Shown here piece after piece: positions 16,007 to 43,748 of a stretch of 64,000 bases of DNA. The translations under genes and the position numbers were made by a program. The first letter of the stretch is position 1, and each line of letters starts with the position of its first letter. The DNA is from an uncultured bacterium (GTDB lineage Bacteria > Chlamydiota > Chlamydiia > Chlamydiales > SM23-39): contig OY970323.1 of NCBI GenBank assembly GCA_963716985.1, positions 864,001 through 928,000 on the forward strand, read 5' to 3'. The notes below the pieces were generated by a model. The model made no database searches. It was not told the DNA's origin and was given only the letters and a program-made list of their open reading frames with translations.

Positions 16007-16014
16007 GTCGTAAG

Positions 16015-16374: not shown

Positions 16375-16375
16375 A

Positions 16376-16422
16376 TGGGGCAACCAGGACTTGAACCTGG
16401 GACCGACGGGTTATGAGTCCGC
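16376..16422 (-). other. att core: 3' half of tRNA(CAT; Met/Ile2)
   Basis: Reverse strand GCGGACTCATAACCCGTCGGTCCCAGGTTCAAGTCCTGGTTGCCCCA has the anticodon loop, T arm and 3' acceptor strand; no 5' half. Confidence 0.9.
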
Positions 16423-16528
16423 TGCACCCGCACCACTTCCCAGCAGCTAACTACTCAGAATCATAGCGGAAAGCATCCCTTTCCATCCATCGCGAACTAT
16501 CGTGATTTGTTGCTCTTTTTTGTATGCC

Positions 16529-16553
16529 AGTGGTCCACAAATGGTCCACGGAT
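16529..16553. repeat. Putative integrase arm-binding sites (TGGTCCAC x2)
   Basis: AGTGGTCCACAAATGGTCCACGGAT, 24/25 identical to 58754-58778. Confidence 0.7.
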
Positions 16554-17223
16554 TAATCTATGTACTCAAGATACCTTTTGGATCTAGCGATGAATAAAAG
16601 GTTCATATCGGACGCTCCTTTCTCTCATGCGAATCTATAGATTAAGAATTGCAGTTGCTGAGTATGTGAGTGTTGATTAGGTTTGATCTTTCGTGCTGAT
16701 AAAAAGGTAGGCGATTCCTTTGTAGATTTCATAGCGTTGTACGTTGTGTAGATGATCAGGAATGGACGGTATGGGTTTGCGAACCCCGGGATTGAGAAGA
16801 GGAAGTAGAAGACGTCCTATAGGATGATGAAAATTTTCGCTCATGTGCTCATCCCCCCAAGCAATAATACCGCCTTTACGAGTCACTCTCACAAATTCTC
16901 TCAACGCAATATCTGGATGACTGAACCTGTTGATTCCTCCCATGTGAAATAGTGCGTCGAAAGATTCATCAGCAAAGGGAAGATATTCGGCATTTGCCTG
17001 AATGAGAGGTATGTTTAGATCACCATGCTGCTTTCGGCATTGTTGCAACATGCACATGGAAAGATCGGCCGATAGGATTTGCGCCTCTTTCCCGAGTGCC
17101 TCGCGTAAGAGGGGCTGAAATACGCCGGATCCGGGAGAGACTTCAAGCAGCCGAATTCCCGGCTTTAGATTTAGTAGGGACATGATGTTTTTCCGTTCGC
17201 GCTGCATGTGAATGCCCGCTAGC

Positions 17224-19198
17224 CCGACTTTCCTAGTTACGAAATACAAAAATGAAAACATTCCCCCACAACTATGTTTGGGTCAATTTTTTTTGCGATA
17301 CGCTGTCACCCTAAAACAGTTGAGCCTTATCTTGCAGCCTGAGGATGTTTACCAGCTTTTGCTGGATTCCTGACATCCTTGTAAGCGTTGTCTCTGTTTT
17401 ATCTTTGGTTCCTTTGTGTTTGGCTAATTCGTAAGTATTTACAACCTCATTGATTCTTCCCAGCTCAGTCTCCAGCCGTTTGTATGATATATTGATTCCG
17501 GCTGCTGCAACTCTTCGCTGTAGCGTTTGCCGAAGAAGTAGCGCAATGGAACAGTATAAGGCGTGCACCTTAATATGAGCGTCTATCCAGTGATAAAGCG
17601 GCCACCAGGTCCCGGTAGCGCGATCCTTGGTTTTCTTGAATATGCCTTCCACCAAGTATTGGCTGCGATAAGCTTTGATAATCCTATCTGTATCCCATTC
17701 GTGCCTTGTCGTTACGATAATAGTCTTACCAAGATAAGTATCCTCCAGCTTTGCGAGGGCCTCTCTATCAATATGATATTGCAAAAATGGCACTCCTGTC
17801 GTGTCATCTAACGTTACCTCAGTTACTATTACACGGGAAAGAAACTGTCTGTGCAGTTTGTCCTTGCACTGATTCTCGATACTGGTCTTGGTGGGCTTTT
17901 TTCCCTTCGTCACGAGGCCATTCCGCCGATCATTCAATTTCTTTTGCAACTCTTGCAGCCCATCTATAGCGTGCGTGATATCGTTTTGTAATGTTTTGCG
18001 CTGAGTATCAAATAATTCCGGATTGTAGGTGGTTATTGTGGTGAGAAGTATGCCGCTCACGCGCTTCTTCTTTCGTAGGGCTTTGTTTCCAAGAAGATCT
18101 TTGTCCTGACAGGGTCGCAATACTCCGCTACTGTTAGAGATAGCGGCTAACTCTGTGTGCTCGCCAAGCTTGACCGAACCTACAAAATGAAGCTTCGCCA
18201 ATTTCAAGAGTTTAAAGTTGTCTTTCGAATTATTTCCCTTGTCAAAGATTATCGTTACTTCCGGCTTGCGTGACACTCCAAAGGTGATTTTCAGGAACTT
18301 GTCGAATCTACCAATAACATCCAGAAACTCCTTAGCGTCGTTCCGGTTACCCTCATATACATCATAGTAAAGAGGTATTTGACCGTCGGCGGCGCAAAAG
18401 AGTGAATAGCTGACCTGGCGTAGATTGTCCTGGCCCTGCTTATTCTTGCCTCGCTTGGCAATAGAGCATCGTTCATTGAATGTGTCGATAAAAGTATAGT
18501 AGTTGGTGCCGTCATAAGAAATTGATGCCGGATCGATGTTTTCTCTGGTAATGACACCCTTAAGAATGGTCGTCCAGATCTGTAGGCATTCTTCGTGACC
18601 AAACCGTCGCATATGATCCCAGAATCTCTGAGAACAGAGGCTATCGGCAGAAGCTTGGGGAACATATCGCACAAGTGCAGTTTCACGGAACCACTGCCAC
18701 ATTGAATTTTTGCTGCTGGCCTGAATCGCTCTATTGAGTGCTGCAATGAGTATATACTGTCCAATCGTCAGTCCTTGTGATCGTTTCATGCAAATATTAT
18801 CGATAATCGCAATGACCTCGGCCCGTCGAGCTTCAAGCCACAGAGCGGTTATAATGCCCCACTGGAATACCTGTGCAAACAATGGCTTGCGTCCCGAGCC
18901 CTCCACCGCTCTTAGAATATCCTCTGCCTTCCCTAAATACTTTTGCCACACCCGACGTGGCTTCCCATCAACTCTACGCCATTCGCAGGCGTAATAGTAC
19001 TTATGACCATTTATTACCTTAGCTTCCACCTGAGCCATACGACTCCTATTCTTATAGGATTTCTATTTTAGGGGGACACCATACTGGAAAGTCAAGGTAA
19101 AAAATTTAGGGTGACAATATTAGTCGCAAAAAAATGCCCTCAGATAATCCTGTAAGGGCAAATTAGGATGAATGAGTTTGTCTAACTAGGAAAGTCGG
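17224..19198 (-). mobile_element. IS1634-family insertion sequence
   Basis: Perfect TIRs CCGACTTTCCTAGTTA (17224-17239 and 19183-19198). Duplicated GCTAGC at 17218-17223 and 19199-19204; the target is palindromic, so a 4-bp CTAG TSD is also possible. Confidence 0.9.
17311..19038 (-). CDS. IS1634-family transposase
   Basis: YYYACEWRRVDGKPR..QKYLG, YDGTN, RGKNKQ, GNRND, IFDKG, YRSQYLVEGIFK. Confidence 0.9.
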   Translation of the reverse strand: MAQVEAKVINGHKYYYACEWRRVDGKPRRVWQKYLGKAEDILRAVEGSGRKPLFAQVFQWGIITALWLEARRAEVIAIIDNICMKRSQGLTIGQYILIAALNRAIQASSKNSMWQWFRETALVRYVPQASADSLCSQRFWDHMRRFGHEECLQIWTTILKGVITRENIDPASISYDGTNYYTFIDTFNERCSIAKRGKNKQGQDNLRQVSYSLFCAADGQIPLYYDVYEGNRNDAKEFLDVIGRFDKFLKITFGVSRKPEVTIIFDKGNNSKDNFKLLKLAKLHFVGSVKLGEHTELAAISNSSGVLRPCQDKDLLGNKALRKKKRVSGILLTTITTYNPELFDTQRKTLQNDITHAIDGLQELQKKLNDRRNGLVTKGKKPTKTSIENQCKDKLHRQFLSRVIVTEVTLDDTTGVPFLQYHIDREALAKLEDTYLGKTIIVTTRHEWDTDRIIKAYRSQYLVEGIFKKTKDRATGTWWPLYHWIDAHIKVHALYCSIALLLRQTLQRRVAAAGINISYKRLETELGRINEVVNTYELAKHKGTKDKTETTLTRMSGIQQKLVNILRLQDKAQLF

Positions 19199-19394
19199 GC
19201 TAGCAGATAGCCAAAAATACTCTCGGCAATGTGGTATAGCGGTGCGATGCGGTCGTATACTCGATTCATTTTCAGGTTCTCTCCTGTAAGCGTAGGCGGA
19301 TATACAAGAGAGAGAATCTGATTTTGGGCTACATCGGGGATTTTTGCTTTAGTTGCAGGATCGCGAAGAATGTCTATCAGCCAACTTGGGTACA

Positions 19395-22300
19395 TCATAT
19401 AGGTCTTGGTAAAAAATAGTTGTGCATGAAGAATTCGATCGTTTTTTTAATCCACTCAGTTGGAGTATCGGGTATAACCACCCCCGATTTTTTCATTTTT
19501 TGCAGGGTGAGGCGGGCGGAAACCGTGGGCTCCTGTTCCCCCCAGCGATTTGATAGAAAGCCGGCAAGAGCTGCTGCCGGATCGTTCGGATCTTTCTTCA
19601 GATGCTCAAAAATGATTTGTTTCCACTCATCCATCGTACAAGAGGATAGGTGATAGCCTTTTTCTCTTGCGCAGGCAATCAGGGTTTCAGATTCCAAGGG
19701 ATCAGGATTTAGAATGTGAAATGTTTGATTTTTTTCGTTCGGGTCGATGGAAAGACGGGTGATGGCGCGGCTTGCAATATCAACTGGAATGATCTGTTCT
19801 GCAAAGTCGCTTCCTGGAATCTTGCCCATTTTGATGCAGGCTCGAACAAGTCCCCAATAAAAGTCGTTTTGTTGGCAGGCGCCTGATTGAGTATCGCCGC
19901 CTACGCGTCCTACCCTATAAATATTCACCGAAATATTGCGCTCTTTTGCTGCCAGCATTAGCTTTTCTGCGACCCACTTGCTCTGCAAGTAGCCCATTTC
20001 AAGCGCTTCCCCATGGCGGGGATACTCAGATTCTGTGAGTGCGCTGGACGATCCTTGATCCTCTCGTGTTAGCACATGTAAAGTGGAAATGTAATGCACT
20101 GGTTTTGTGTGGCCTGTAACGGCAAGGCGTAAAATTTCAACCGTTCCTAATACGTTACTCGCTCGCAATGCATTATAGGAATCGGCAAAATTTACCTGCG
20201 CTGCGCAGTGATAAATCGATCCCATGTTTTGAGCATAGAATTGGTATTGCTCTTCGCTTAGACCAAAATGGGGCTGATCGAGATCCCCCGGCACAACGAT
20301 GATGCGATCACAATCGATTTCGTCTGTTAAGCGATAATACGCTAAGTTCTTTCGAAGCCGCATTAGGCCTTCCAATGCGTTTTGGGCGCGCACAAGACAA
20401 TGGACGGTGTTGGAAGTGTGGAATAGAAGATCTCTGAGCAAGTAGACTCCTAGAAACCCTGTGGCTCCCGTGAGAAAGATGTTGGTTGGATTTTGGAGGG
20501 ATGGCTCCTTGGCGGTAATGGAAGCGTGGAGGAAAGAATCTTGTAGCATTTTTGCCCAAGTGATGCTTCTTTGGTTTATATTTTGTTGAGATTCAATGCT
20601 GGAAGCGAATTCTTCAACGGTCGGAAATTGGAAGAGGAGGCGTAGAGGGATTTCTTTTCCTAGACGATCGCTTAGCTTGAGGACGGCTTGCGCAGCGGAT
20701 AGCGAATGTCCTCCGAGATCAAAAAAATGATCCGTTTTACCAATCGATGATAGGCCCAGCACTTCGCTCCACGTCTTAATGATTTCTTGCTCAAGGGGCT
20801 GGCAGGCTGTGGATGGGGGAGGAGAGGCAGATTTTACGGTTGGGAGCGGCAACAATTTTTTGGCAATTTTTCCGTTAGGAGAGAGAGGAAAATGATCTAG
20901 AAAGAGAACGTGTGAGGGCACCATGTATTCGGGAAGTTTTTTCAATAAATAACTTTTGAGCGCGCTTGCTTGTTCTCTCAAATCGATCGGGCGATTGGTA
21001 AAGTGTTGCAATCCTTCGGTTTGCATCGACAGGGTTGGAGAATGTGTAGAGAGGATGGCATTGTACCGAAAGAGAAACATTTCGGTTTTATGCGTTGAGT
21101 GTTGAAGAAAAACTTCAGCTTGGACCTGGGGAATGTGTTTAAAGAGGGCAGGATCTATAAATAGCTCTCGTTCTTGATTTTTTTTATGTCCCACTTGTTT
21201 TTGCAGCTCTGCTACGGTCATTGTCTCTTTTGCATTCTCGAGAATGACGGATTGATAAAAAAGATCCATGAGGGCTAAATTGCGCAAGTCGCCCAGAAAA
21301 ATCGAGCCGCTCGAAGTTAAGAGAGATGCAGCTTTGTTCAGAACGTCAAACAGATATTCGATGCTGGGAAAATATTGCACAATTGAGTTTAAGATCACGA
21401 GATCAAAGGTTTCGTTCTCGAAGGGAGAAAAATCGGGGGCTGCGCATTGAAATAATCGAACGCTTTTTTGGTTGATGGAAGTGGCAGGAATGGCGTTGGA
21501 GATGAAGGATAGCGCCTTGGATGAGATGTCTGTTCCTATATAGAGATCGGTGTGCATCGCCAAACGAAAAAGAAGCATCCCCGTTCCGCATCCGATTTCG
21601 AGGATTTTTTTGGGTTTTAGTTTGAGGATTTTCTCTATTTTCTCATCCACCCACTCCTGCATTGCTTCTTCAGAATAAGCGTTGCCCGTATAGCTGCTGT
21701 TCCATCCCATCGCAGGAGTGGGGTGATTTGCGCTATAGGTGGTGTCAAAGACCGTTTGCCAATGATGGATGCGCTCTTGTTCCTGCGAGCGCGTATTGGA
21801 AGAAACGACATAAGCTGTAAGTGTCTGATCGTGCGCTGCAACCGTTGCAGATTGAATGCCTGGATACTCCAGTAGAGCTTGCTCAATCTCTCCCAATTCA
21901 ATCCGTACGCCCCTCATTTTGACTTGGTCATCAACTCTTCCTAGAAATTCGATTTCTCCATTTTGCCAATACCTGGCAAGATCTCCCGTTTTATATAATG
22001 TCTGCCCTGGAAGGAATGGGTTAGGGATAAATTTTTTCCTCGTGAGTTCCTCTCGGTTCAGATAGCCGAGTCCTACCCCTACGCCTCCTATGTATAACTC
22101 TCCGGAGACGCCGATCGGAACTGGCTGCATTTGGGAGTCAAGGATATAAATCTGCGTATTGGCGATGGGTCTACCAATCGGTATGACCTGCTTTTGAGTC
22201 TTTTTCGAGCAATCCCAAAACGTCACATCGATCGAAACTTCGGTAGGGCCATATAAATTATGTAATTGAGCATGGCTATTTTTTTTAAAATGGTTTGCGA

Positions 22301-24557
22301 GTTCGTAGGAAAGCGCCTCACCGCTGCAAAAGACAAGGCGCAAAGAGGGGCAATGGCTAACCTGCGATAAAAAGAGCATCAGCATGGAGGGGACAAAATG
22401 GAGAGTTGTGACTTTGTATTGTTGGATACAGCAGGCAAGCAGGGCAGGATCGCGGTGGATGCCTGGGGCAGCGATAATGAGCTCTGCGCCCGTGATGAGT
22501 GGCCAGAAAAATTCCCACACGGAGACATCAAAGCTGCAAGAAGTTTTTTGCAATACTCTATCATCGGGGGTTAGTTGATATTCTTGTTGCATCCATAAGA
22601 GTCGATTGCAAATGCCTCGATGGGGAATCATGGCTCCATTCGGCTTTCCTGTTGAGCCTGAAGTATAAATCACATAGGCAAGGCTTATCGGCTGGGCTGT
22701 GCATAGCGGGTTCGAAATTATCCCATTTGCAGGGGACACGCTTGTATCAATCGTGTGTAGAGGGAGCTTGGAAATCCATGAAGGAAGTTCTCGGTTATAG
22801 AGAAGAAGGGGCGTTTTACTATCTTCAATCATGAACGAGACTCTTTCTTCCGGATACTCCGTGTCGAGCGGAAGATATGCGCCGCCGGCTTTTAGAATCG
22901 CTAAAAGACTAATTACTTGTTCTACGGATCTAGGCATGTATACGCCAACTACAACGTTGGGTTTTACCCCCTTGTCAATGAGTTCGTGGGCGAGAAGATT
23001 TGCGCGCCTATTTAACTGCTCATAGCTCAAAGAAAGTCTCTCGTCGGTTACGGCAATTTTGGAGGGCGTTTTTGCCACTTGCTCTTCCACATACTGCGAG
23101 AGCGTCTTAGAGAATGAAAAGTCAACTTCCGTTTGGTTCCAATCAAAGAGCATTTTTCGTAGCTGTCCCTTGCTAAGAAAAGAGACTTCACCAACGCTTA
23201 AGTTAGGATTTGCTGCGATTGTTTCTAATACGGCCTGGTAGTGGTGCAGCATCGCCTCGATTGTATGTTCCGAAAAAAGTTCGGCGTTGTACTCAATTCC
23301 TACTTGATTTTCATAGATGTTGAGCAAAAGATCGAACTTGCAAGTGCCGTTATGAATCTCCATCGGCTCAATTTTTAGCCCCGGCTCATCCACTTTGGGA
23401 ATCGGTTGATTTTGCAAGACAAACATGACTTGGAAAAAAGCAGAGGTATTTAATTCTCGCTTCGGCTGAAGGATCTCGATAAGTCGTTCAAAAGGAATAT
23501 CTTGATGCTGATAGGCAGCTAGTGATTTTTTCTTTATTTGCGCTAATAAGTCCAGAAATGGGAGATCGGAATGGAGCTCTGATCGGATGACTAAGGTATT
23601 GGCAAAGAAGCCGATGAGATCGGATAGCTCGACTCGATTTCGATTCGCTACCGGCACTCCTATAAAAATAGTGTCCGCGTCTGAATAGCGGTGCAAGAGC
23701 AGTTTCCACGCGGCGAGCAATACCATGAAGAGGGTTGCTTCTTCTTGCGTTGACACTTGAGTTAATTTTTCTATTAATTCGGCCGGATAAGAGACGAGCT
23801 TTCTTGCGCCTTTATTGGAGAGCATAGCAGGGCGCGGGTAGTCAATGGGAAGTGTCAAGGGAGGAAAATCGCCTGCAAGCTCCTCTTTCCAATAAGCGAT
23901 TTGTTTATCTAGAATGGCCCCTCTGAGCCACTCTTTTTGCCATACGGAAAAATCGCTATATTGGATCGACAGCGGAGGCAACGGATCGGGCAAATTTTGA
24001 GAATAGGCTTGCAGAAGAGTTGTGACTTCTTTGATGATCAGTCCCAAAGACCAACCGTCAGAGATGATGTGATGCATGGTCCAAAGCAAAATATGATCTT
24101 CTTTATTGAGTCGGATCAATCGGACTCTAAATAGGGGCCCGGTCTCCAGATCAAACGGGCGAATGGTTTCCTCTCGAGCAATCTCTTCAGCTCTTTGTTC
24201 GTCGGATACACTTTCTATGGGCAGATCCACTTCTCGAGAAGTTTGAATCATTTGCATCGGTTCGCCATCTTTGCGTGTAAACGTAGTGCGCAACGATTCG
24301 TGACGCTGCACGATGCGAGAGAGCGCTTTTTGTAGAAGCTGAGGATCGATCGCTCCTCGAATGCGGACGGCATCGTGCATGTTGTAAACAGAAGAGCCAG
24401 GGACAAGTTGCTCTAAAAACCAAAGCCGCTGCTGGGAAAAAGATAGAGGAGCAAACTGGGAAGCGGGTTTTTTAGGGATTTTATCTATACGCAATTTGCC
24501 TTCTGCAAGTTTTGCGAGAAGCTCTTTTTTCGAGTTTGACAATGCGTGAATATTCAT
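19395..24557 (-). CDS. NRPS terminal module C-A(Ser)-NMT-PCP-R
   Basis: HHIISDG; YTSGSTG; Ser-type code DVWHFSLIDK; GWNSSY..LEIGCGTG..NSIVQYFP; GGHSL; FLTGATGFLG and GYLQSKW (reductase). Confidence 0.93.
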   Translation of the reverse strand: MNIHALSNSKKELLAKLAEGKLRIDKIPKKPASQFAPLSFSQQRLWFLEQLVPGSSVYNMHDAVRIRGAIDPQLLQKALSRIVQRHESLRTTFTRKDGEPMQMIQTSREVDLPIESVSDEQRAEEIAREETIRPFDLETGPLFRVRLIRLNKEDHILLWTMHHIISDGWSLGLIIKEVTTLLQAYSQNLPDPLPPLSIQYSDFSVWQKEWLRGAILDKQIAYWKEELAGDFPPLTLPIDYPRPAMLSNKGARKLVSYPAELIEKLTQVSTQEEATLFMVLLAAWKLLLHRYSDADTIFIGVPVANRNRVELSDLIGFFANTLVIRSELHSDLPFLDLLAQIKKKSLAAYQHQDIPFERLIEILQPKRELNTSAFFQVMFVLQNQPIPKVDEPGLKIEPMEIHNGTCKFDLLLNIYENQVGIEYNAELFSEHTIEAMLHHYQAVLETIAANPNLSVGEVSFLSKGQLRKMLFDWNQTEVDFSFSKTLSQYVEEQVAKTPSKIAVTDERLSLSYEQLNRRANLLAHELIDKGVKPNVVVGVYMPRSVEQVISLLAILKAGGAYLPLDTEYPEERVSFMIEDSKTPLLLYNRELPSWISKLPLHTIDTSVSPANGIISNPLCTAQPISLAYVIYTSGSTGKPNGAMIPHRGICNRLLWMQQEYQLTPDDRVLQKTSCSFDVSVWEFFWPLITGAELIIAAPGIHRDPALLACCIQQYKVTTLHFVPSMLMLFLSQVSHCPSLRLVFCSGEALSYELANHFKKNSHAQLHNLYGPTEVSIDVTFWDCSKKTQKQVIPIGRPIANTQIYILDSQMQPVPIGVSGELYIGGVGVGLGYLNREELTRKKFIPNPFLPGQTLYKTGDLARYWQNGEIEFLGRVDDQVKMRGVRIELGEIEQALLEYPGIQSATVAAHDQTLTAYVVSSNTRSQEQERIHHWQTVFDTTYSANHPTPAMGWNSSYTGNAYSEEAMQEWVDEKIEKILKLKPKKILEIGCGTGMLLFRLAMHTDLYIGTDISSKALSFISNAIPATSINQKSVRLFQCAAPDFSPFENETFDLVILNSIVQYFPSIEYLFDVLNKAASLLTSSGSIFLGDLRNLALMDLFYQSVILENAKETMTVAELQKQVGHKKNQERELFIDPALFKHIPQVQAEVFLQHSTHKTEMFLFRYNAILSTHSPTLSMQTEGLQHFTNRPIDLREQASALKSYLLKKLPEYMVPSHVLFLDHFPLSPNGKIAKKLLPLPTVKSASPPPSTACQPLEQEIIKTWSEVLGLSSIGKTDHFFDLGGHSLSAAQAVLKLSDRLGKEIPLRLLFQFPTVEEFASSIESQQNINQRSITWAKMLQDSFLHASITAKEPSLQNPTNIFLTGATGFLGVYLLRDLLFHTSNTVHCLVRAQNALEGLMRLRKNLAYYRLTDEIDCDRIIVVPGDLDQPHFGLSEEQYQFYAQNMGSIYHCAAQVNFADSYNALRASNVLGTVEILRLAVTGHTKPVHYISTLHVLTREDQGSSSALTESEYPRHGEALEMGYLQSKWVAEKLMLAAKERNISVNIYRVGRVGGDTQSGACQQNDFYWGLVRACIKMGKIPGSDFAEQIIPVDIASRAITRLSIDPNEKNQTFHILNPDPLESETLIACAREKGYHLSSCTMDEWKQIIFEHLKKDPNDPAAALAGFLSNRWGEQEPTVSARLTLQKMKKSGVVIPDTPTEWIKKTIEFFMHNYFLPRPI

Positions 24558-36700: not shown

Positions 36701-37676
36701 CTCCTTCGCTGCGAACGAAGCCATCGGCGTTGGCATCAAACGTTTTACATCTGCCATCCTTTGATAGAGCTTGAGCCCGTGAAAAAAAAATCGAGCTATC
36801 GGGAGTGAGCAATACATTGACACCTCCGACTAGTGCGATGCTGCATTCTCGCGCCTTAAGGCTATGGTTTGCCAGATGAAGAGCTACCAGAGAGCCGGAA
36901 CAGGCCGTATCAATGGCAAGGCTTGGACCATGAAAATCGTAAAAGTAGGAGAGGCGATTGGCCACCATGCTGTGCGCCGTTCCAGAGCCAGAATAGGCTT
37001 CTATACGCTCGGAATTAGAAAAGACCAATTTTCCATAATCATCACTGAGAGTCGCAAGAAATACGCCTGTATTTGATCCTTTTAAACAATGCGGCTCAAT
37101 GCCAGCATCTTGCAGAGCTTCCCAAGATGTTTCGAGCATGAGGCGCTGTCTCGGATCCAAATGAAAAGCTTCTCTGGGAGAGATGCCGAAAAAAGAGGCG
37201 TCAAATTGATCTAAATGATCAAGAAATCCTCCCCAACGCGAATAAATTTTTCCTTTGGCCGATGGATCGGGATCGTAAAGGCTGGCCAGATCCCAACGTT
37301 CGGCAGGAACCTGGGTAATCGCATCGACTCCCTCCCAACAGAGATCCCAAAAAGCTTTTAAGTTTTTAGCCATCGGAAATCTGCATGACATTCCAACAAT
37401 TGCAATATCATCTTGCATAGATTGCGAAGAATTAGAGAATTGCGTAGATATTTCATTAGAAAGAAATCGAGAAAGTTCCTCGATTGAGGGGTATTCCCAT
37501 CCTAGAGTTAAGCGGAGCGATCGGTTGTATTCTGTTTCTAGGGATTGCACTAAGGCAATTAATTGAGAAGATGTGAGGCCATAATGATCAAAAGGGAGAT
37601 CGATTTGAATGGAGCTAATATCGAGGCCTGTTTGGTTTGCAATAAATTTAGTAATAAAAGAGTGAAATTTATTCAT
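27699..37676 (-). CDS. Hybrid PKS-NRPS: ACP-KS-DH-KR-ACP-C-A-PCP-E-C-PCP (3325 aa)
   Basis: GLTS; DTACSGS/HGTGT/NIGH; DH H..G..VFPG; KR TGGLGELG/YAAAN; GLDSL; HHLICDG; A code DAFWLGGTFK; GGDSI; E HHLVMD; HHILMDG; GGNSL. Start placed at the ATGA overlap with the permease. Confidence 0.92.
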   Translation of the reverse strand: MNKFHSFITKFIANQTGLDISSIQIDLPFDHYGLTSSQLIALVQSLETEYNRSLRLTLGWEYPSIEELSRFLSNEISTQFSNSSQSMQDDIAIVGMSCRFPMAKNLKAFWDLCWEGVDAITQVPAERWDLASLYDPDPSAKGKIYSRWGGFLDHLDQFDASFFGISPREAFHLDPRQRLMLETSWEALQDAGIEPHCLKGSNTGVFLATLSDDYGKLVFSNSERIEAYSGSGTAHSMVANRLSYFYDFHGPSLAIDTACSGSLVALHLANHSLKARECSIALVGGVNVLLTPDSSIFFSRAQALSKDGRCKTFDANADGFVRSEGAGIVVLKRLSDAISSKDRIYAIIKGSAINQDGRTNGTMAPNPKAQEAVLREAYRQARISPSQVQYIELHGTGTKIGDPIEAQALTAVLKEERSPLSKCFVGSVKTNIGHTEAAAGIAGVIKTSLAVYHKKLPKSLHFQNLNPLIPQESSPFEVITASGAWPDLSQELIAGVSAFGFGGTNGHVVLSSTPASAQAPPLSLPTTTWNKKHFWIETQKNIASNLLSSYINPIKTPLLHVWNVDIPKSALFSDHKVGTDVVFPGSGYLEMVLEAAQKRGISTPIQLQNIRFLHKLKLPQTDSIQLSLTDEPAEIQFEVHTSQMSFATGSIISSVQIPPDKNPEKILAACPNVLSAKNHYRTMSMQGLHYGVAFQALQDIHLGISEAIAKIECPSTHPWTICIDALFQMASSLGKAGEGHERRLPIGVKKFECFALPSSSWVYGYAYLEGQDASLHIHLELLDQTGRLLARITSLQLLTVFDSPTPSVLALNWEKSSNPSPSSVDEKHNPWLIFGKKEKLSNALKKILTRKGDHVVQIEKSCDFISFKENLSSRKWNVIALMPEPFAEALALTQICIEASIAPTLCFVTRGTQAIGDEPISLTYQSLIWGLARAAAHIEHPALKGKLIDLDLAEASSSVEAQRILEMWLDSEDQIAWRQNVRYQIRLKKAPLPIVPPISFRAGAAYLITGGLGELGLSVAQWMAHRGAHHLILTGVNEIPSKEMWKSISAEHPRFQAIQKILTLESQGCQIESLTLDTTNLASLTNLLQQRKEKGLPSIQGIIHAAGAVKDAPIPLVTEEHIQAILPPKVDGAINLCTAFKDEPLDFLLFFSSLAATLPIIGQSVYAAANAFLDAFVHFLRGQNLPAFSIDWGPVQLGMAAALENKNLHAKRGMFPMEPYLCWDIMGQILQSNLPSVVVTAADWSQVHRSRAYSPPMIRELGSMPASHSKNNSLVSKPVLSLLEQLKEYAASVLQIAKEEIVMTHSLAQMGLDSLMATELKNLLAVKIGIQVAMSQLLQEMSLEHLAQSLELVATPQETRTRLPLSHHKIPLSYAQEGIWFLEKSENQFSFNIAGIATHLGAFDPTLFYRAVDEVIVSQEILRTAFSAEEGVPYATVLPPAPINRNFLDLSHLSKEEKEQIFHQTCEQEARRSFDLETGRLLRILCVKIKEQEYRVLVVMHHLICDGVSTRILMQNVFSILRSQTLSPPTFQYADYAIDQRQKSYADDLQFWERTLQIVPPVLELPRSATKMPSFAGRRVAFTIPEHLVIRVKDLAKQEQTTPFMIFFAVYSILLERYSGQESFAIGVITAGRQTKETEDLIGCFINTLPIVIDLFKEITFRDYLTRIKATLLAAYDHSNVSFEQILRHIHAPRDPLISPLFQAAFSFEKDPTSDLKDESFSFQELHLRTSRYELSLEMTLGKQNLHAWFDYKADALDHSMIERMASHFVILLENALDHMDTAVQQLDLLSREEKTTMLTEWNQTTSSYPKDLSIYEIFLKQVNLTPQSIALEDERRSISYHELGKYIHLLSQKFESLGIQKGFTVGLYADRSIEFIVAILSLLKLGACYVPIDPAHPLDRIRHIADSANLSLIVTKDLPLEVIQKLAVSLYTLEPIANMAQEGASLLEYASSAQATDAACILYTSGSTGTPKGVVISHRNISRLVCNTNYAHFGPNETFLLFAPLNFDAALFEIWGPLLNGGRLVIAPARLLGFDELGLLIEKHKVSTLWMTAALFQSMDTEAMRRLSSLCQFLVGGDVVSEAQSAQFIRMHPNCRLINGYGPTEGTTFSCYHPICLEDLQTSSIPIGKPIANAQVYVLDRHLNPVPIGVPGEIYIGGDGLALEYVQDPKLTKERFISTPFHPRLYKTGDRGWFLLDGTIRFGGRLDSQVKLRGFRIELEEIEIHLRAHPNIKEAVVVLHKNLRGGDQLCAYITLNQPLNANTYKEFLKDRLPSYMIPSFFVTLSKMPLSARGKIARNMLPQPELSSESEPVQIPSEEKTLQEIWTQLLHVEAVRRTDNFFELGGDSIRALQMVSLAKRKGLSFTVQDVFTEQTLERIAAKNSTPAVRSPRAFTQDTIPLTPIQQWFFQQSIPNPAHWNHWVLFTLPTPLAESSLYELAERHDCFWLRFRKKGDRWEQFTAQEKPFEISRLSLFSTHREVKKQALSQAINEEHRRLDLENGPLFRFTFIEGLEENRHHLLIIAHHLVMDQMSWHILLNEIEILCETKEALSSAPSSHSFTEWSLHLQELKKSPTIQNELIFWDSIPWHTTKPIPCDHSDGSNLEKDSVTVESICDIGSTNHQRLDDFLTMVLIQTLQEWNDQQPVCIALEQQGRPSSLDVYHTIGWFTQIYPIFAEPGVSLDFLQEQLRQFSHHALSFSLLRQEKFKNATQILFNFLGVMDDDVRSATQFGMDANPPICNRDPNAERTHWIEINALVTNRKLHVYWTFSPNLHNHETIAHLSGRFQIYLHRNLHERSLSPADFPLAALQKTDLEQLQKNCKRIDDVYILTPLQEGLLLHSLLNPTSDKYLVQCVLQIESNLNLDRLQQSFRLILERYPILRTSFHTQGLKHPVQVIEPSPDVPWAQIETEDFDAAVQKDRLKPFDLSFPPLMRFYIAKLGNTTRILWTYHHILMDGWSLSIVLRDWFMIYEQLSLGNQILLPTAISFKQFVKALTSLPPVKAWQTFLAGHRKPTPLPDLTLSEANGCFSHDLRLTPEMHQALMSRLSQERLTIATFMQGIWALVLSHFSGEKDIVFGITVSGRNLDLPEIESIVGLCINTVPQRIKIDRLHPLSSWFKHIQDLQIRMQPYHHVPLASIQGKQPLFQSVVVIENYPIEDKKGDDKAIKLVSIETKEKVEYPLTLMVFPSQQLLVRLLFDESKFSLKGAQQILDTISSLISVILNNWDSNVGTHLPLSRQELERGLQEIWAELLGTPNVGLQDAFQDLGGNSLTLMRMKGLMQQRFDIDFPLVDLFKYQTIKAIVEAILSELHLALPVQQEAEINR

Positions 37677-38854
37677 GCATTTCGTTGAGAGGATTGAATT
37701 TTTAGCAAAGCAAGGGTGTAGAAGATGAGAGAAAAACAGAGTAGAATAGCAATGGTTGGGAGGATCGCAGAAACGGTATAGCCTCTTACTAAGACGTCTT
37801 GAAAACCTTTTAAAGCCCAAGCGTGAGGAGTGAGAAAGGAAATGCTTTGGAGCAATTTGGGCATTTCAAAGAAGGGGATAAAAATCCCGCCCACTGTTGC
37901 CATGCAGATAAGAATAAGACTGGATAGAGGACCCATTTGTTCCGTTGTTTTAGAGATCGATGCGATTAAAAGTCCGAGCGAGTTCGCTGTCGCTGCAGTA
38001 GCGAAAGTAACCAGTAGTAGTCCTGGTAGGCACTTTTCTAGCACTATATTAAAGACGAAGGAGCCGAAAAGGAACATGAAGGCCACTTGAACCAAATTTA
38101 CTAGATAAAATGGAGCAAGCTTACCAATTAACATTCGGGCGGGAGAGATGGGAGCGGTCATCAATCGATCGTAGGTGCCTCCTTCTCTTTCTCTCAAAAT
38201 CGTCGTGCCAATCACTTGCACAATAAAAAAAATGCCAAAAATCGTATAGCCCGGGACATTTTGCTCTTCTGCGCTGATGGGGCGTGTTAGTTTCATCCCC
38301 TTAGGGGCAATTCTTGCAAAATGAACGGCATCGTAGATGGGACTGTCGATCGAGCTTATTTGAGCGTTTCCGGCTTTTACTCCGGCCACATATCCGGCCA
38401 CATTCATGATATGCATTTTGATGAGGCGCTCGATGGGATTTAGATTAGATCCTCCGGTGGCAGGATCGGCAATAAACTCTACCAGGGGCCTAGATTCTGT
38501 TTGCAATGCACTGGAGAAATTGGAAGGGAATTTTAAAACGAGTGAATAGGAAGAACTGCGTTTAAGTAAGAGTGTTTCGCTCTCTTTTTCTTGAATTGCG
38601 GAACCATCGATTTGATCGACGACAATCAGTCCCTTTTCTTCTCGCAACTGATCGATGATATAGGATGCAAGCGGGCCTTGGTCTTGGTTTACGACGAGGA
38701 TTTTTGCGCTGGCAACGCTCTGGTTACCGACGCCCGCATAAGTCATCAGGAGGACAAAAACAATCGGTAGAATGAAAAGAACAGACAAGACGCCTCGATC
38801 TCTACAGATAAGTTTTAGCTCTTTGATGGTAATTGCAAGTAGTTGCCGAAGCAT
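37673..38854 (-). CDS. ABC-2 type exporter permease
   Basis: KELKLICRD, EREGGTYDRLMTAP, LTPHAWA; multiple TM segments. Confidence 0.9.
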   Translation of the reverse strand: MLRQLLAITIKELKLICRDRGVLSVLFILPIVFVLLMTYAGVGNQSVASAKILVVNQDQGPLASYIIDQLREEKGLIVVDQIDGSAIQEKESETLLLKRSSSYSLVLKFPSNFSSALQTESRPLVEFIADPATGGSNLNPIERLIKMHIMNVAGYVAGVKAGNAQISSIDSPIYDAVHFARIAPKGMKLTRPISAEEQNVPGYTIFGIFFIVQVIGTTILREREGGTYDRLMTAPISPARMLIGKLAPFYLVNLVQVAFMFLFGSFVFNIVLEKCLPGLLLVTFATAATANSLGLLIASISKTTEQMGPLSSLILICMATVGGIFIPFFEMPKLLQSISFLTPHAWALKGFQDVLVRGYTVSAILPTIAILLCFSLIFYTLALLKIQSSQRNA

Positions 38855-38855
38855 T

Positions 38856-39824: not shown

Positions 39825-39829
39825 ATCCC

Positions 39830-40525
39830 TTATTTATTGCAAAGAATTAGCAGAGGATTTTGCGCGTTAGTAGCTATTGCGCCAGCCCACCCAGTTCCCA
39901 CGGGAAGCGTGCAGAGAGTCCATTGATCCAAGGAAAAGCTGTCGTAATGATCCTGCCGGATCACCTCGACATTGCGAATGTCGGTATTTAGGCCGCTTCC
40001 TAGCGCTTTTACATAAGCTTCTTTGAGCGTCCAGGCTTGGAAAAGCTGGTCCTTTTTGGCGTGTTCAGGTAATTTATTGTAAATTGCAGATTCTTGTTCT
40101 GAGAATATTATTTTTGACAAATCTTTATCTTTTGAATGTCGTTCTATATCGATTCCTACTTGTGAATTCGTGGTTAGAGCAATGGCAAGGCGGTCATGGG
40201 AATGGGAAAGGTTGAAGTGAAGAGGTGAAAGATGTTTCGAATGCAGAGATGGCTTGCCAAACGGATTATAGATGAACTCGATTTGGTGAGGGGAAGTATT
40301 TAAATGGATGCCTAAGATTTCTCTCAGACGACCTCGCGCTGCAATAAATCGAGTCTGTAGCTCTTCAGTCTTATATCTCGCTGCGCGTTCCTTTTCCGCA
40401 AGGGATAGATAGCTTGTCAGTAGGGCAAGTTTGGAGGAGTGAGTGAGGGACTCAAGCCAAATAAAGATTTTATCCAAATCTAGAAGCTTTTTTGAGTGTG
40501 GATTCGGGGGAGGCAAGATCTTCAT
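39830..40525 (-). CDS. Sfp-type 4'-phosphopantetheinyl transferase
   Basis: GKP, FNLSHS, VGIDIE, WTLKEAYVKALG. The true start may be TTG near 40478. Confidence 0.92.
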   Translation of the reverse strand: MKILPPPNPHSKKLLDLDKIFIWLESLTHSSKLALLTSYLSLAEKERAARYKTEELQTRFIAARGRLREILGIHLNTSPHQIEFIYNPFGKPSLHSKHLSPLHFNLSHSHDRLAIALTTNSQVGIDIERHSKDKDLSKIIFSEQESAIYNKLPEHAKKDQLFQAWTLKEAYVKALGSGLNTDIRNVEVIRQDHYDSFSLDQWTLCTLPVGTGWAGAIATNAQNPLLILCNK

Positions 40526-42833
40526 TCAATAGTGCTACTTGTTCATCAAGCTTTTGATCATCATCATTCCAGAGCCAGGGTTTTTTAGGTTCTGAAGGAT
40601 GTTGAGTGATTTCCCTCACTGTTTGGTAAAGAACCTGTGTAGCGGGCGATATAAAAGATTTTCCTTCGTAGTTCCCGAACATTTTTTGAGAGCGGAGATC
40701 GATTGCCTGGACTGCAAACAGCAGGGCCAGGGAAAGATACTGTCGGAATAGTTCTAATGATTGACGAGTGAGATTCGCTGAATTAAACCCTTGACTATTG
40801 ATGTTCTGATTGAATTGTTCTGCATGCGTTGGGAAACGATCAGCAATTGAATGCCCATAGAATTCCAATAGGGGAAGGATGGAATTGCCCACAATTTGAA
40901 GCCCTTTCATTCCCATATTGATAGGGCGTTCAAGATTTCCCACAAGACAAGGAGATAAGCCATTGCTAAATTTGGGCTCTACCAGTAAAGCAATTTGCAC
41001 GTCTAAGCCTTTTGTTGTAAGGCTTAACATCATGCGCAGCTGATCCATTCCGATTCCGATGTATTCTCCCAGAAAATTCCCTCCATAGAAAATTTCTCCA
41101 GTATCCGGATTCATTAGGGGGTTATCATTGGAGGAGTTCATTTCGACTTCGATTTGCCGTTTTAGATTCCATAAATTCTCAAAAATCGGTCCTAAGTATT
41201 GGGGCAAACAGCGCGATGAGTAACGATCTTGTACCAGATCGTCTTTTGCATTCCTGTCAAATCCATCGTTTCGACGGACCAAAAGAGAGTTCTCTAACAG
41301 ATGGAATATTTTTTCAGCAACCCATAGCTGCCCTGGATGGGGTTTAATCTGGTGCAAATATGGATGAAATGAGAGAGTTGTTCCATGAAGTCCTTGAATG
41401 AACATGGCCTGAATATGCAGCGCAAGCATGAGGAGCTCCTCGGCTTCTTTTACACAGCCTGCTCCGATTGCTGTCATCATGGAAGTGCCGTTTAACATGG
41501 CGAGAGCTTCTTTTGGTTCTAACGATAAAGGCGATAAATTCAGCTTCTTTAGCGCTTCAGTGGCTGGCAATAGCTTTCCGTTCATATCGACCTTATAGTT
41601 GGCTTCATGGCCAACAAGAGCGCCTGCGATATAAGACAGTGGCACTAGATCTCCACTTGCACCAATTGATCCTAACTCAGGAACGCAAGGTGTTATTCCT
41701 TCATTAACGAAAGTGACCAACCGCTCGATTAGAGAGAGACGAATACTAGAATTCCCCCGCAAGTGCGAATTTGCCCGAAGAATCATTGCTGATCGAACGT
41801 CTTGTTTGGGAAGATATTTCCCCGCGCCGGCTTTGTGGATCCATAGCATATTTTGTTGCATATGGGCAGCGTTTTGGGGGGAGATGAGGTGATTAGCCAT
41901 CCCACCAAAAGCAGTGGTGACACCGTAAATTGTCTCTCCAGATGCAACCGCTTGCTGCATTTTTTTATGTGATAATTCAATTCGATTGAGAATAGTCGAA
42001 TCTTTTGTGATGGACACTGTAGAATGTCTGGTTGCAGCCGATATTAATTGGTCGATTGTTAAATTGTTTCCGTTTAATTCTATTGATGCTTGTTTCATTG
42101 TTTTGCTTATTTTTTCAGCCATCTCTTTTCCAGATGTTTTACAAAAGAGATGGCCGCCTTTAAAAGTTTCAAAATAGAAATCGCTTTTTGTATATTGTTT
42201 CCATTGTCTTATTTCACTAGCAGAAGCAAAGATATCTTCACTGCCGCCAAAAGCGAAAATGGGTATTGTCATGTTAGATAGGCTAGATATTGTATGACTT
42301 TCACAAACCGAAAAATCAGCACGTATGATGTGCAGAAACATATCTAATATGTCGGGTGATTTTAGAATATTTTCTGGCAATTCTTCTAATTTCCGAATTT
42401 GATTTAGTAAATCATTTTTTGGTAATAATGCCATTGCGGGAAGTTGAGAAGGGAGATGGGGAGCTCTCATAGCGGACAAGAAGAGGTAATTTGCTTTTTT
42501 TTGAAAGTAGGATTCTAGGTAGCGAGCTAGTTCGAAAGCAATCAAAGCTCCCATTGAATGGCCGAAAAAGGCAAATGGGATATCCAAGTGATCGCGAATA
42601 CCTTGTGCAATAGCAGGTATGAGTTCGTTCATGCTATGGTAAGCAGTCTCATTGATTCTGGTGCCCCGGCCTGGAAGTTCGATAGTGCACATATCGATTT
42701 CAGGAGACATATGGGGCTCCATAGAGCGATATGCAAAACTGCTCCCTCCTGCGAAAGGAAAGCAAAAAAGGCGTGCAGCAGCGGGATAATTTCTTTTCTG
42801 TGCTGAAGGGATCCAGGAATTCTTGGGCATCAT
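40470..42833 (-). CDS. Type II thioesterase fused to an MIO-dependent aromatic amino acid ammonia-lyase (cyanobacterial PAL-like)
   Basis: N-terminal LFCFPFAGG, LPGRG, GHSMG, GGH; C-terminal YGVTTAFGG, GSIGASGDL, QDRYS, HAEQFNQNINSQG; single open frame. Confidence 0.9.
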   Translation of the reverse strand: MMPKNSWIPSAQKRNYPAAARLFCFPFAGGSSFAYRSMEPHMSPEIDMCTIELPGRGTRINETAYHSMNELIPAIAQGIRDHLDIPFAFFGHSMGALIAFELARYLESYFQKKANYLFLSAMRAPHLPSQLPAMALLPKNDLLNQIRKLEELPENILKSPDILDMFLHIIRADFSVCESHTISSLSNMTIPIFAFGGSEDIFASASEIRQWKQYTKSDFYFETFKGGHLFCKTSGKEMAEKISKTMKQASIELNGNNLTIDQLISAATRHSTVSITKDSTILNRIELSHKKMQQAVASGETIYGVTTAFGGMANHLISPQNAAHMQQNMLWIHKAGAGKYLPKQDVRSAMILRANSHLRGNSSIRLSLIERLVTFVNEGITPCVPELGSIGASGDLVPLSYIAGALVGHEANYKVDMNGKLLPATEALKKLNLSPLSLEPKEALAMLNGTSMMTAIGAGCVKEAEELLMLALHIQAMFIQGLHGTTLSFHPYLHQIKPHPGQLWVAEKIFHLLENSLLVRRNDGFDRNAKDDLVQDRYSSRCLPQYLGPIFENLWNLKRQIEVEMNSSNDNPLMNPDTGEIFYGGNFLGEYIGIGMDQLRMMLSLTTKGLDVQIALLVEPKFSNGLSPCLVGNLERPINMGMKGLQIVGNSILPLLEFYGHSIADRFPTHAEQFNQNINSQGFNSANLTRQSLELFRQYLSLALLFAVQAIDLRSQKMFGNYEGKSFISPATQVLYQTVREITQHPSEPKKPWLWNDDDQKLDEQVALLNEDLASPESTLKKASRFG

Positions 42834-43270
42834 GAAGCAAAAAAGGCGATGAGTGCAGTTTCTATAAGGATGATGAGATAAATGCCGCAGAGACGTAAGG
42901 CATCTTTATCTCCAAGTATTCTTAACGGGTTTTTCCAAATGACAGTTGATTCCAAAACTTCAACCCCAAGATGGCTTATGAATACCATCCCCCCCATAAT
43001 AAACATGTGAACTGTGGGAAGGTGGTGTATGCTCCTGAATACACTCGTTCCTTGCCAAAAAAATAGGGTAGCTAGTAAGCAAAAGAAGGTGGCTATATAA
43101 AAAGGAGAGAGAATGAACTCTTCGAGCTTTTTGTTAATGCTTTCTCTGTTCCCTTTAGTTTTTATTCCGGTTAGAGTTCCTGCGATTCCGCAAGCCAGAT
43201 AGCTATAGATTGTAGTGATCCAGAAAATCGGCCAAGCGCTTTTGATTAAGAATAGCCACTGAATATCCAT
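42830..43270 (-). CDS. Small membrane protein, first gene of the BGC operon
   Basis: 146 aa, about 4 hydrophobic segments, ATGA-coupled to TE-PAL. Confidence 0.65.
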   Translation of the reverse strand: MDIQWLFLIKSAWPIFWITTIYSYLACGIAGTLTGIKTKGNRESINKKLEEFILSPFYIATFFCLLATLFFWQGTSVFRSIHHLPTVHMFIMGGMVFISHLGVEVLESTVIWKNPLRILGDKDALRLCGIYLIILIETALIAFFAS

Positions 43271-43396
43271 GTAAATGCCTCTGCAAGAATTGGAAGAGTC
43301 TAAACGTTTTGTGGTTTTTAGCCAAATGAAAAAATTGTAGATTTTTAAGGAAACGAGGAGAATAATCGCTCCTTATCTTGACCGAGGAGGTTGTTA

Positions 43397-43741: not shown

Positions 43742-43748
43742 GGTGATT

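Follow-up and report, generated by a model that had tools for sequence, protein, structure and literature searches.

An acyltransferase-less hybrid polyketide-peptide gene cluster on a tRNA-Met island of an environmental chlamydia

We analysed a stretch of 64,000 nucleotides (nt) from the genome of an uncultured chlamydia (contig OY970323.1, genome positions 864,001 to 928,000; hereafter referred to as the window), whose minus strand carries a biosynthetic gene cluster at 16677-43270. We consider it fairly probable that the cluster is a real ten-gene operon for a hybrid polyketide synthase (PKS)-nonribosomal peptide synthetase (NRPS), carried as cargo of an island at a tRNA-Met gene, with biosynthetic steps that can be predicted from its domain content. 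The cluster is genuine, conserved and uncharacterised, a familiar kind of system with an unusual history of domain loss. An earlier model-made annotation of the same DNA (hereafter referred to as the sequence-only reading) had pointed to the operon; what is new here is an insertion sequence (IS) within it, its host and island context, the origin of its acyltransferase (AT)-less state, the conservation of a cluster family and a doubt about the starter unit. Coordinates are positions in the window unless marked as genome, and the cluster genes are called g1-g11.

A ten-gene PKS-NRPS operon

Eleven open reading frames (ORFs), including one IS transposase, occupy the minus strand at 16677-43270. 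Domains are abbreviated as ACP (acyl carrier protein), KS (ketosynthase), DH (dehydratase), KR (ketoreductase), C (condensation), A (adenylation), T (carrier), E (epimerisation) and R (reductase).

42830-43270, minus strand: g1, helical membrane protein of 146 amino acids (aa), first operon gene, without a Pfam or NCBIfam match
40470-42833, minus strand: g2, type II thioesterase (TE; residues 21-244) fused to a methylideneimidazolone (MIO)-dependent aromatic amino-acid ammonia-lyase (residues 258-741); PF00975, PF00221
39830-40525, minus strand: g3, Sfp/HetI-type phosphopantetheinyl transferase (PPTase); PF01648, PF22624
38856-39824, minus strand: g4, DrrA-like ABC ATPase; PF00005, NCBIfam DrrA subfamily
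37673-38854, minus strand: g5, ABC-2 permease, by Pfam; the g4/g5 pair has PF00005, PF12698 and PF01061
27699-37676, minus strand: g6, megasynthase ACP-KS-DH-KR-ACP-C-A(Val-type)-T-E-C-T, by Pfam domains and motifs
25981-27702, minus strand: g7, stand-alone KS with a peptidyl carrier protein (PCP)-like carrier and no AT, by Pfam and motifs
24554-25984, minus strand: g8, stand-alone acyl/aryl-acid adenylating ligase of the ANL family; PF00501, PF13193
19395-24557, minus strand: g9, terminal NRPS C-A(Ser-type, methyltransferase inserted)-T-R, by Pfam and motifs
17311-19038, minus strand: g10, IS1634-family transposase ORF; NCBIfam NF033559
16677-17261, minus strand: g11, 3' part of a UbiE-like class I S-adenosylmethionine methyltransferase; PF08241

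The sequence-only reading had proposed ten co-directional, mostly overlapping genes. All ten are on the minus strand, and six of the eight junctions between g1 and g9 are overlaps (five of 4 nt and one of 56 nt), the remaining two being gaps of 1 and 5 nt. The domain order that it had given was recovered as well, every domain that it named being found with Pfam and NCBIfam; its inventory has to be amended by the eleventh ORF, the IS1634 transposase, which splits the last gene. The genes g1-g9 provide ~24 kb of coding sequence without a stop or frameshift, and the GC content of the cluster (45.4%) matches that of the genome. Although the longest ORF of g6 starts with TTG and reaches 37820, translation most likely begins at 37676, with an ATG that shares bases with the g5 stop and directly precedes the predicted ACP. 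By Pfam, g6 has no AT, and its last module has no A domain. Scans for promoters and terminators at 43000-44300 and 16300-19500 returned counts no higher than in shuffled sequence.

Among the accessory genes, g3 has HetI as its best NCBIfam match, with a score under the model cut-off, and is the only Sfp-type PPTase of the genome, whose other PPTase match is one 142-aa ORF of the AcpS type. The ABC pair g4/g5 scores just under the cut-off of the DrrA subfamily (288 versus 312 bits). The AlphaFold2 model of g1 is all-helical with a predicted confidence (pLDDT) of 90; it had no match in the Protein Data Bank with Foldseek at E ≤ 0.001, and its top scores in a protein atlas were 0.80 or lower. Homologues of g1 are rare, with eight representatives at E ≤ 0.001 among 1.84 billion proteins, and one with 32% identity is encoded directly upstream of the TE gene in each of two metagenome loci, L024 and L025.

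Catalytic motifs, adenylation codes and chain release

The KS domains of g6 and g7 (KS1 and KS2, respectively) both keep Cys-His-His, as TACSGS/HGTGT/NIGH and TACSTS/HGTGT/NMGH. In g6, the DH has its His together with GxxYG-like and DxxxQ motifs, and the KR has its glycine-rich motif and the Ser/Tyr/Asn residues; it reads VKD where B-type KRs carry LDD. HHxxxD is kept in the three condensation-family domains of g6 and in the one of g9, and the middle one of g6 shows the start PLTPIQxWF and other marks of an epimerase. The six conserved serines of the carrier domains are all present. Read at the Stachelhaus positions, the A-domain codes are DAFWLGGTFK for g6 and DVWHFSLIDK for g9, each one residue off the classical Val and Ser codes, respectively.

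The methyltransferase insert of g9 sits between A8 and A9, and the alignment of the A-methyltransferase region with 5WMM, an interrupted A domain, runs through this insert. The insert fits a role in backbone N-methylation, and O-methylation would also be compatible with it. The R domain of g9 has both the Rossmann motif TGxTGxLG (as TGATGFLG) and the Tyr-x-x-x-Lys motif of short-chain dehydrogenases/reductases (as YLQSK) intact; its nearest solved relatives are the PKS reductase 8V1X (E = 4e-70) and then the myxalamid reductase MxaA (4U7W; E = 9e-66). KS2 is nearest to the trans-AT KS 7ZMA (E = 3e-167) and to colibactin KSs among solved structures, that is, to hybrid or trans-AT systems.

With the KS, carrier, C and A motifs present, the cluster belongs to the modular hybrid type I PKS-NRPSs, and g9 contains a thioester reductase release domain. 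These results agree with the sequence-only reading in its PKS-NRPS label (the catalytic motifs being intact), in the Val-like and Ser residues (the A codes being of the Val and Ser types) and in reductive release, for which the R domain offers its NAD(P)H motif and Tyr/Lys pair and has MxaA among its nearest solved relatives.

The ammonia-lyase and the starter unit

The lyase of g2 matches PF00221 over its full length (E = 2e-139) and contains the Ala-Ser-Gly (ASG) triad, in GSIGASGD. Its nearest solved structures are the phenylalanine ammonia-lyases (PALs) of Anabaena and Nostoc (2NYN and 2NYF, E = 1e-187 over 524 residues). It is farther from the aminomutase AdmH (3UNV; E = 9e-75), from tyrosine aminomutases (TAMs; E ~1e-60) and from histidine ammonia-lyases (HALs; E ~1e-53), the range against solved tyrosine ammonia-lyases (TALs), TAMs and HALs being 1e-53 to 1e-62. 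At a position where HAL has Glu it has Gln, as do PAL and TAL. The PAL equivalog model TIGR01226 gave 367.3 bits against a cut-off of 519.15, a shortfall that is weak evidence because the model presumably rests largely on long eukaryote-type PALs. The model for D-beta-Phe aminomutases, TIGR04475, gave 332.1 bits against a cut-off of 800.

The pair of residues for substrate selectivity is Ile-His in g2, aligned with Phe-Leu of the Anabaena PAL (AvPAL). In the available text of PMC3789393, Phe-Leu marks PALs, His-Leu TALs and His-Gln dual enzymes, and x-His is not listed there. The g2 lyase thus shares the MIO triad and lyase fold of PALs and lacks their Phe-Leu pair. We found no x-His lyase with a known substrate. 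The pair could be read in 66 of the 120 best homologues, where 50 were x-His (31 of them Tyr-His) and 9 Phe-Leu. All lyases linked to a cluster of this kind are x-His: Ile-His in the window and in P0003, Thr-His in P0004, Ala-His in P0005 and Val-His in L016, L024 and L025. The ligase g8 has the feruloyl-CoA synthetase 8WEV as its nearest solved structure (E = 3e-80) and carries His instead of Asp in the A4 region, leaving no Asp for an amino group.

The sequence-only reading had a PAL and an aryl-CoA ligase supply the starter. Its two enzyme families, an MIO lyase and a ligase like feruloyl-CoA synthetase, are upheld; the Phe-Leu pair of a PAL is missing. Because of the Ile-His pair and the PAL score below the cut-off, we treat 'PAL-primed' as a family call with an uncertain starter. 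The starter would best be named an aryl-acrylic acid, for which cinnamate is the default assumption. A starter other than cinnamate, in an otherwise unchanged pathway, is a tentative alternative that we hold to be less likely than the default; the x-His lyase would then act on, say, Tyr or a substituted Phe. Such a starter is suggested by the Ile-His pair, by the prevalence of x-His among the homologues (50 of 66) and its constancy in the cluster-linked lyases, by the absence of x-His from the pairs given in the available text of PMC3789393, and by the nearest relative of g8, feruloyl-CoA synthetase, an enzyme for a substituted cinnamate. However, the g2 lyase is far closer to the two cyanobacterial PALs than to any solved TAL, TAM or HAL, its Gln is that of PAL/TAL, and no x-His enzyme with a known substrate was found, which leaves a non-cinnamate starter conjectural.

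A second alternative, which we regard as improbable, makes the MIO enzyme an aminomutase of the andrimid type, with g8 loading a beta-aryl-beta-amino acid onto the A-less C-T module and the polyketide starter coming from elsewhere. This would explain the orphan ligase and the A-less module together; the score of the aminomutase model (332) is close to that of the PAL model (367), and AdmH is among the solved relatives of the lyase. On the other hand, the aminomutase score is far under its cut-off, AdmH is much more distant from g2 than the lyases are, g8 looks like an acid-CoA ligase by its best structure and by its missing A4 Asp, and the N-terminal ACP of g6 would be left without a loader.

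The Tyr-His clade is the commonest pair variant among the best lyase homologues. Seven metagenome contigs of soil type (L017-L023; 53-63% GC) carry Tyr-His lyases that are 54-58% identical to that of g2. On two of them (L017 and L018), the KS of a type I PKS, 43% identical to KS1, is encoded ~3.5 kb downstream of the lyase; on L019-L022, the PKS/NRPS proteins of the cluster had no match within the stretches covered.

Loss of the acyltransferase domain

No cluster protein has an AT domain (PF00698) by Pfam, and the complete genome has a single match to this family, a 312-aa ORF that is flanked by fabH and fabG and close to acpP; this ORF is the housekeeping FabD. The cluster is AT-less, as had been proposed, and FabD is the sole AT of the complete genome; each of the 4 C domains and the two PKS KS domains that the genome encodes belong to the cluster. 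Two features of trans-AT systems come apart here: integrated ATs are lacking from the cluster proteins and from the Pfam lists of three g6 orthologues (see below), and a dedicated free-standing AT is lacking too, the one PF00698 match being FabD.

The origin of this state is indicated by locus L024, on a 111-kb metagenome contig of 61% GC, which we read to position 22429. It contains an ABC pair, the g1 homologue, a TE, a lyase, a PPTase-like gene and a permease, followed by a PKS and an NRPS; unlike in the fused g2, the TE and the lyase are two adjacent genes. The PKS of L024 is ACP-KS-AT-DH-KR-ACP, with a full PF00698 domain (247 bits). Residues 4-514 of g6 are 65% identical to residues 10-522 of this PKS, and residue 515 of g6 rejoins it at residue 948, such that 425 residues, corresponding to the KS-AT linker and the AT, are missing from g6, which keeps a relic of the post-AT linker motif. 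This alignment with its 425-residue gap indicates that the AT-less state arose by clean excision from a cis-AT module.

The lineages of the two KSs, considered without a KS tree, differ. KS1 is closest, outside its orthologues, to a cis-AT module (65% identity), whereas KS2 has the trans-AT KS 7ZMA as its best solved match and cis-AT hybrid modules as its best plasmid-borne matches. A tblastn search of a plasmid collection with the KS-T protein g7 gave 1838 records, all below 60% identity, and the two best cyanobacterial plasmid loci inspected were ordinary cis-AT hybrids without synteny to the cluster.

Because both PKS modules are without an AT, malonyl units must come in trans, and FabD is the sole candidate in the genome. 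There is some support for a supply by FabD, if the line works here, in the occurrence of an AT-less KS-T-TE protein beside an A-T protein among the best KS2 relatives from other chlamydiae, where one locus was examined. At this locus (L028; G270:C1:759917-764287), the KS-T-TE protein (897 aa) is encoded directly downstream of the A-T protein, and its KS is 50-52% identical to KS2. In about 15 other chlamydial genomes, ORFs of roughly 685-1130 aa contain KS matches with a similar level of identity. KS modules without an AT are a recurrent feature of the phylum, and these loci may correspond to the 'NRPS-like' cluster that published surveys describe as widespread.

Conservation of the cluster

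A search of 5.8 billion proteins found three full-length orthologues of g6 with 57-59% identity, the same Pfam content and no AT; the next match was a named myxobacterial NRPS/PKS with 32% identity over 58% of the query. Full-length orthologues of g9 (63% and 60% identity) are encoded, to judge from the lengths of the contigs, on two of those with a g6 orthologue, and two partial ones were also found; lyase or TE-lyase relatives (68-70%) are on all three of these contigs. P0124 had no match among the metagenome contigs.

The KS Cys/His/His and the DH Asp stand at identical residue numbers in 4/4 megasynthases, indicating that the AT-less (and A-less) layout is shared, old and maintained. The Val-type code is kept in all four, and the Ser-type code in five of five g9 relatives, four of them identical. 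Both R-domain motifs are present in three of five proteins, namely g9 and the two full-length orthologues with a complete matching R domain, while P0301 keeps YLQTK without a match to the Rossmann pattern and P0343 is truncated. In P0123, three patterns had no match, namely those of the glycine motif of the KR, of the start of the E domain and of the lysine of A10.

No published description of the cluster was found in literature searches, to which the genome-by-genome supplementary tables of PMC9666466 and PMC13229535 were external. Together with the low identity of named proteins, at most 32% over 58% of the megasynthase, this is in line with the sequence-only reading, which had called the pathway undescribed.

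We compared 61 genomes, the window's own and 60 relatives. The fused TE-lyase is present in 2 of them, the second being G014 (92% identity), which is from the same family but another genus; the remaining 15 lyase matches are HutH-like, with 24-40% identity. What G014 retains is g1-g5, at 79-92% protein identity, together with ~12 codons from the start of g6; an IS1634-like fragment comes next, and locus L016 from a metagenome has the identical arrangement. The ratio of nonsynonymous to synonymous substitution rates against the sister-genus copy is 0.11-0.26 for g1, g2, g3 and g5. No PKS-type KS was found anywhere in the G014 genome, which has only a FabF-like KS, and its locus appears as a decayed copy of the cluster. 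The same-genus genome G002 has neither the fused TE-lyase nor a type I KS gene. When 400 genomes from the phylum were scored, 44 gave a type I KS match at E ≤ 1e-40, none exceeding 52% identity to KS2.

A recent IS1634 insertion and the integrity of the operon

The following features were identified at the 3' end of the operon.

17218-19198, minus strand: IS1634-family insertion sequence, with NF033559, 16-bp inverted repeats and a 6-bp target duplication
19199-19398, minus strand: 5' part of the methyltransferase gene, ~65 codons, severed by the IS, in frame across the IS-less joint

The transposase ORF scores 236 bits against NF033559 (cut-off 100; E = 8e-70); the family transposase, the perfect 16-bp inverted repeats and the 6-bp duplication place the element in the IS1634 family. 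Without the IS, the native methyltransferase frame is ~246 codons long and starts with the ATG at 19398; the overlap of this ATG with the stop codon of g9 assigns the gene to the operon. The present g11 ORF (194 codons) starts inside the IS and has its 181 C-terminal residues in common with the IS-less frame.

To compare other copies, contigs of four public runs (X1-X4) were aligned to window positions 16001-36000; a search for sequencing runs that contain the cluster listed none of RNA. The IS-less joint 17217>19199, which skips 1,981 bp, was present in one contig each of X1, X2 and X4 (lake-water, sediment and groundwater metagenomes); run X3 does not cover the IS site. Contigs from the lake, the groundwater and run X3 are 93-97% identical to the cluster; that from the sediment is short. 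Two contigs are colinear with the cluster, that from the lake (30,836 nt) with 456 differences over 16.8 kb and that from the groundwater (27,283 nt) with 723 differences, and every intragenic indel listed for X1 is in-frame or compensated within 7 nt. Both ends of the X1 contig lie in one and the same 30-nt part of the tRNA copy, which fits a circle or a repeat-bounded unit of ~31 kb. The perfect duplication and repeats, taken together with the IS-free copies in three metagenomes, show that the IS insertion is recent and specific to the genome studied.

These observations bear on whether the cluster is a silent or decaying passenger that yields no product in this genome and is heading to a deletion of the sister-genus type. 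The IS takes ~65 codons from the last gene; G014 and L016 are left with g1-g5 and ~12 codons of g6 before an IS1634-like fragment, with no KS beyond a FabF-like one in G014; FabD is the sole AT of the genome; and G002 lacks the cluster. Against this, ~24 kb of g1-g9 is free of stops and frameshifts with all checked catalytic motifs intact, and the IS is recent. Furthermore, four orthologues that differ by ~40% keep the AT-less layout and the motifs covered by the patterns, which would be unlikely had the loss of the AT killed the pathway, and AT-less KS-T-TE proteins occur in other chlamydiae as well. We consider a silent passenger unlikely.

The host genome and its tRNA-Met island

The genome is a single contig of 2,067,739 bp (44.4% GC), rated 99.5% complete; the related genomes in the collection measure 1-3 Mb. 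It has three full-length genes for ATP/ADP translocases, a family matched in 0 of 14 control genomes, and the host is an environmental, obligately intracellular chlamydia. A cyanobacterial host, to which the likeness of g2 to PALs and of g3 to HetI had pointed, is ruled out by the size of the genome, its translocases and its relatives.

An intact 75-nt tRNA-Met gene lies at genome 970033-970107. Its 3' part occurs in six copies within genome 858784-970107 (window -5216 to 106107; 111 kb), five of which, 5'-truncated according to ARAGORN, lie upstream of the intact gene and are the footprint of repeated integration. The segment with the cluster is delimited and flanked as follows.

16376-16442, minus strand: 5'-truncated tRNA-Met copy (ARAGORN), left boundary of the island segment
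57601-58903, minus strand: 364-aa tyrosine integrase (57601-58695; PF00589) and truncated tRNA-Met copy (58857-58903; genome 922857-922903), right boundary
44192-46883, plus strand: 2.7-kb recombinase module with a 381-aa tyrosine recombinase (44289-45434; PF00589) and a 242-aa protein
13638-16330, plus strand: second copy of the recombinase module, 94.8% identical to 44192-46883, ending 45 nt from the truncated tRNA-Met

The repeats of the tRNA 3' part bound the segment and the integrase adjoins the right copy, as in a tRNA-integrated island, whose excision is putative. The same integrase-tRNA pair, with 85% identity, is present at the intact tRNA-Met.

The two recombinase modules flank the cluster as direct repeats, and a third copy (79% identical) lies beyond the window at genome 944556-947232. 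Besides the recombinase, the only protein with a family, the module includes two small ORFs; in order of position, copies 2 and 3 run on into a 348-aa ORF, whereas copy 1 (13638-16330) is cut off 45 nt from the truncated tRNA-Met. Perhaps the module is itself a mobile element. An IS21-type element, considered for the pair of 381-aa and 242-aa ORFs, was ruled out by the Pfam assignment to tyrosine recombinases.

The tRNA-Met copies delimit an array of at least five tandem islands, with defence genes, the cluster and transposases as cargo. In the same segment as the cluster, 47714-57391 encodes a type III pair of restriction enzyme and methyltransferase (PADLOC; E = 1e-288 and 8e-212), an uncharacterised 425-aa protein, an SNF2 helicase resembling DrmD (E = 5e-216) and a PD-(D/E)XK nuclease of the Cas4-like type. 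At 2042-7140 there is a 942-aa TOTE-type fusion of an archaeo-eukaryotic primase, a helicase and a DUF559 nuclease (PF22548; E = 2e-95), beside an AbiL-like pair of an AAA_21 ATPase and an RloB-like protein. Transposase genes of the Tn5-like (PF14706/PF01609) and IS66 families are found to the left of the cluster, at 7901-9205 and 10213-11844.

Proposed pathway and its implications

In the pathway that we propose, the MIO lyase of g2 would remove ammonia from an aromatic amino acid and give an acid of the aryl-acrylic (cinnamate) type, which g8 would activate and load onto the N-terminal ACP of g6. KS1 would add one malonyl unit, and KR and DH would convert the product to an aryl-pentadienoyl thioester, which the first C domain may couple to Val, to be epimerised by the E domain. 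The A-less C-T module would add a further amino acid loaded in trans. KS2-T of g7 would add a second malonyl unit, left as a beta-ketone, and g9 would append a methylated Ser and release the chain reductively as an aldehyde or alcohol, with possible cyclisation. The methyltransferase, whose gene is broken in the genome studied, would tailor the product, and the ABC pair would export it. The cis-AT would have been excised in an ancestor, leaving the malonyl units to arrive in trans with FabD as the only candidate.

Several points weigh against this pathway. The Ile-His pair and the PAL score (367 versus 519) make the starter acid uncertain, and g8 resembles CoA ligases, such that its direct loading of the ACP is putative. 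No enzyme is assigned for loading the A-less module, and the carrier after KS2 is PCP-like (GGHSL), with malonylation by FabD again putative. The A-code assignments and the rules for KR and DH were taken from the literature rather than from a computed comparison with reference sequences. In the genome studied, the IS truncates the methyltransferase, and the X4 contig has, among the rows listed, two uncompensated 1-nt deletions (in g8 and g9). The megasynthase genes were lost in the sister genus, and the cluster can therefore decay in the lineage.

We also put forward, as a doubtful extension, that the chlamydia makes and exports an aryl-polyketide-peptide by an assembly line that has shed both ATs and one A domain, runs on the cell's own FabD and moves between chlamydiae on the tRNA-Met island. 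If true, this would mean a transferable chemical weapon or host-manipulating signal for environmental chlamydiae, and a natural cis-AT line converted to FabD dependence. According to the available text of a survey, chlamydial clusters are mostly NRPS-like, RiPP-like (RiPP, a ribosomally made peptide modified after translation) and type III PKS (PMC9666466). Here a complete chlamydial genome has an entire multimodular PKS-NRPS line, which sits on a mobile island and is conserved across several freshwater/sediment metagenomes; if active, it is a candidate source of a metabolite with which an intracellular symbiont defends itself or acts on its host. A direct comparison of the cis-AT homologue with the AT-excised form is possible. 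The presence of FabD alone in the genome makes FabD service to a former cis-AT line testable. The x-His lyases, abundant in metagenomes and with no assigned substrate found, constitute an unexplored clade.

Comparison with known systems

The legioliulin cluster (lgl) of Legionella reportedly encodes a PAL. The available text of PMC5126622 describes it as a trans-AT PKS primed with cinnamic acid. An aryl-acrylic starter entering AT-less PKS modules, in a bacterium living inside amoebae or other eukaryotic cells, is common to both systems, and we regard legioliulin as probably the nearest functional analogue documented. In contrast to the present cluster with its three NRPS modules and reductive release, the Legionella system is a classical trans-AT one that yields a pure polyketide, the isocoumarin legioliulin; unlike that system, the genome here has no dedicated trans-AT, and KS1 has a cis-AT module as its nearest relative. 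Legionella proteins were not among the named matches listed for the lyase, g6 and g9.

AvPAL and its Nostoc counterpart NpPAL belong to the same subfamily of MIO lyases as g2, with the ASG triad conserved, but g2 differs from them in its fusion to a type II TE, its Ile-His pair and its place in a PKS-NRPS operon. Andrimid is made by the AdmH aminomutase, a stand-alone adenylating enzyme and an AT-less hybrid PKS-NRPS that uses Val. The likeness to it extends over the MIO enzyme, the stand-alone adenylating enzyme, an unsaturated acyl chain, Val, malonyl extension and the absence of AT. The differences lie in the distance of AdmH from g2 (E = 9e-75, compared with 1e-187 for the PALs), in the aminomutase score far under its cut-off, and in the module order and release chemistry.

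The terminal C-A-T-R module ending in a thioester reductase is shared with MxaA of the myxalamid system of myxobacteria, which reduces the thioester to an amino alcohol. Here, however, the A domain is of the Ser type with an inserted methyltransferase, and the clusters as a whole are unrelated. The unit upstream of g9 would be an unreduced beta-ketone, and the released aldehyde could therefore cyclise, unlike in the case of MxaA. Fungal PKS-NRPSs of the equisetin/cytochalasin type also end in C-A-T-R, release being followed by ring closure to a tetramate or pyrrolinone, and equisetin uses N-methyl-serine. They likewise present a beta-ketoacyl-aminoacyl thioester to a terminal R domain, but they are single iterative megasynthases, and the solved fungal PsoA matches the R region of g9 at no better than E = 1e-18. 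Because the R domain of g9 keeps its catalytic Tyr, a true reduction would be more likely than a Dieckmann cyclisation, and since release in the fungal systems ends in ring closure, a pyrrolinone is as plausible a product as the open aldehyde or alcohol.

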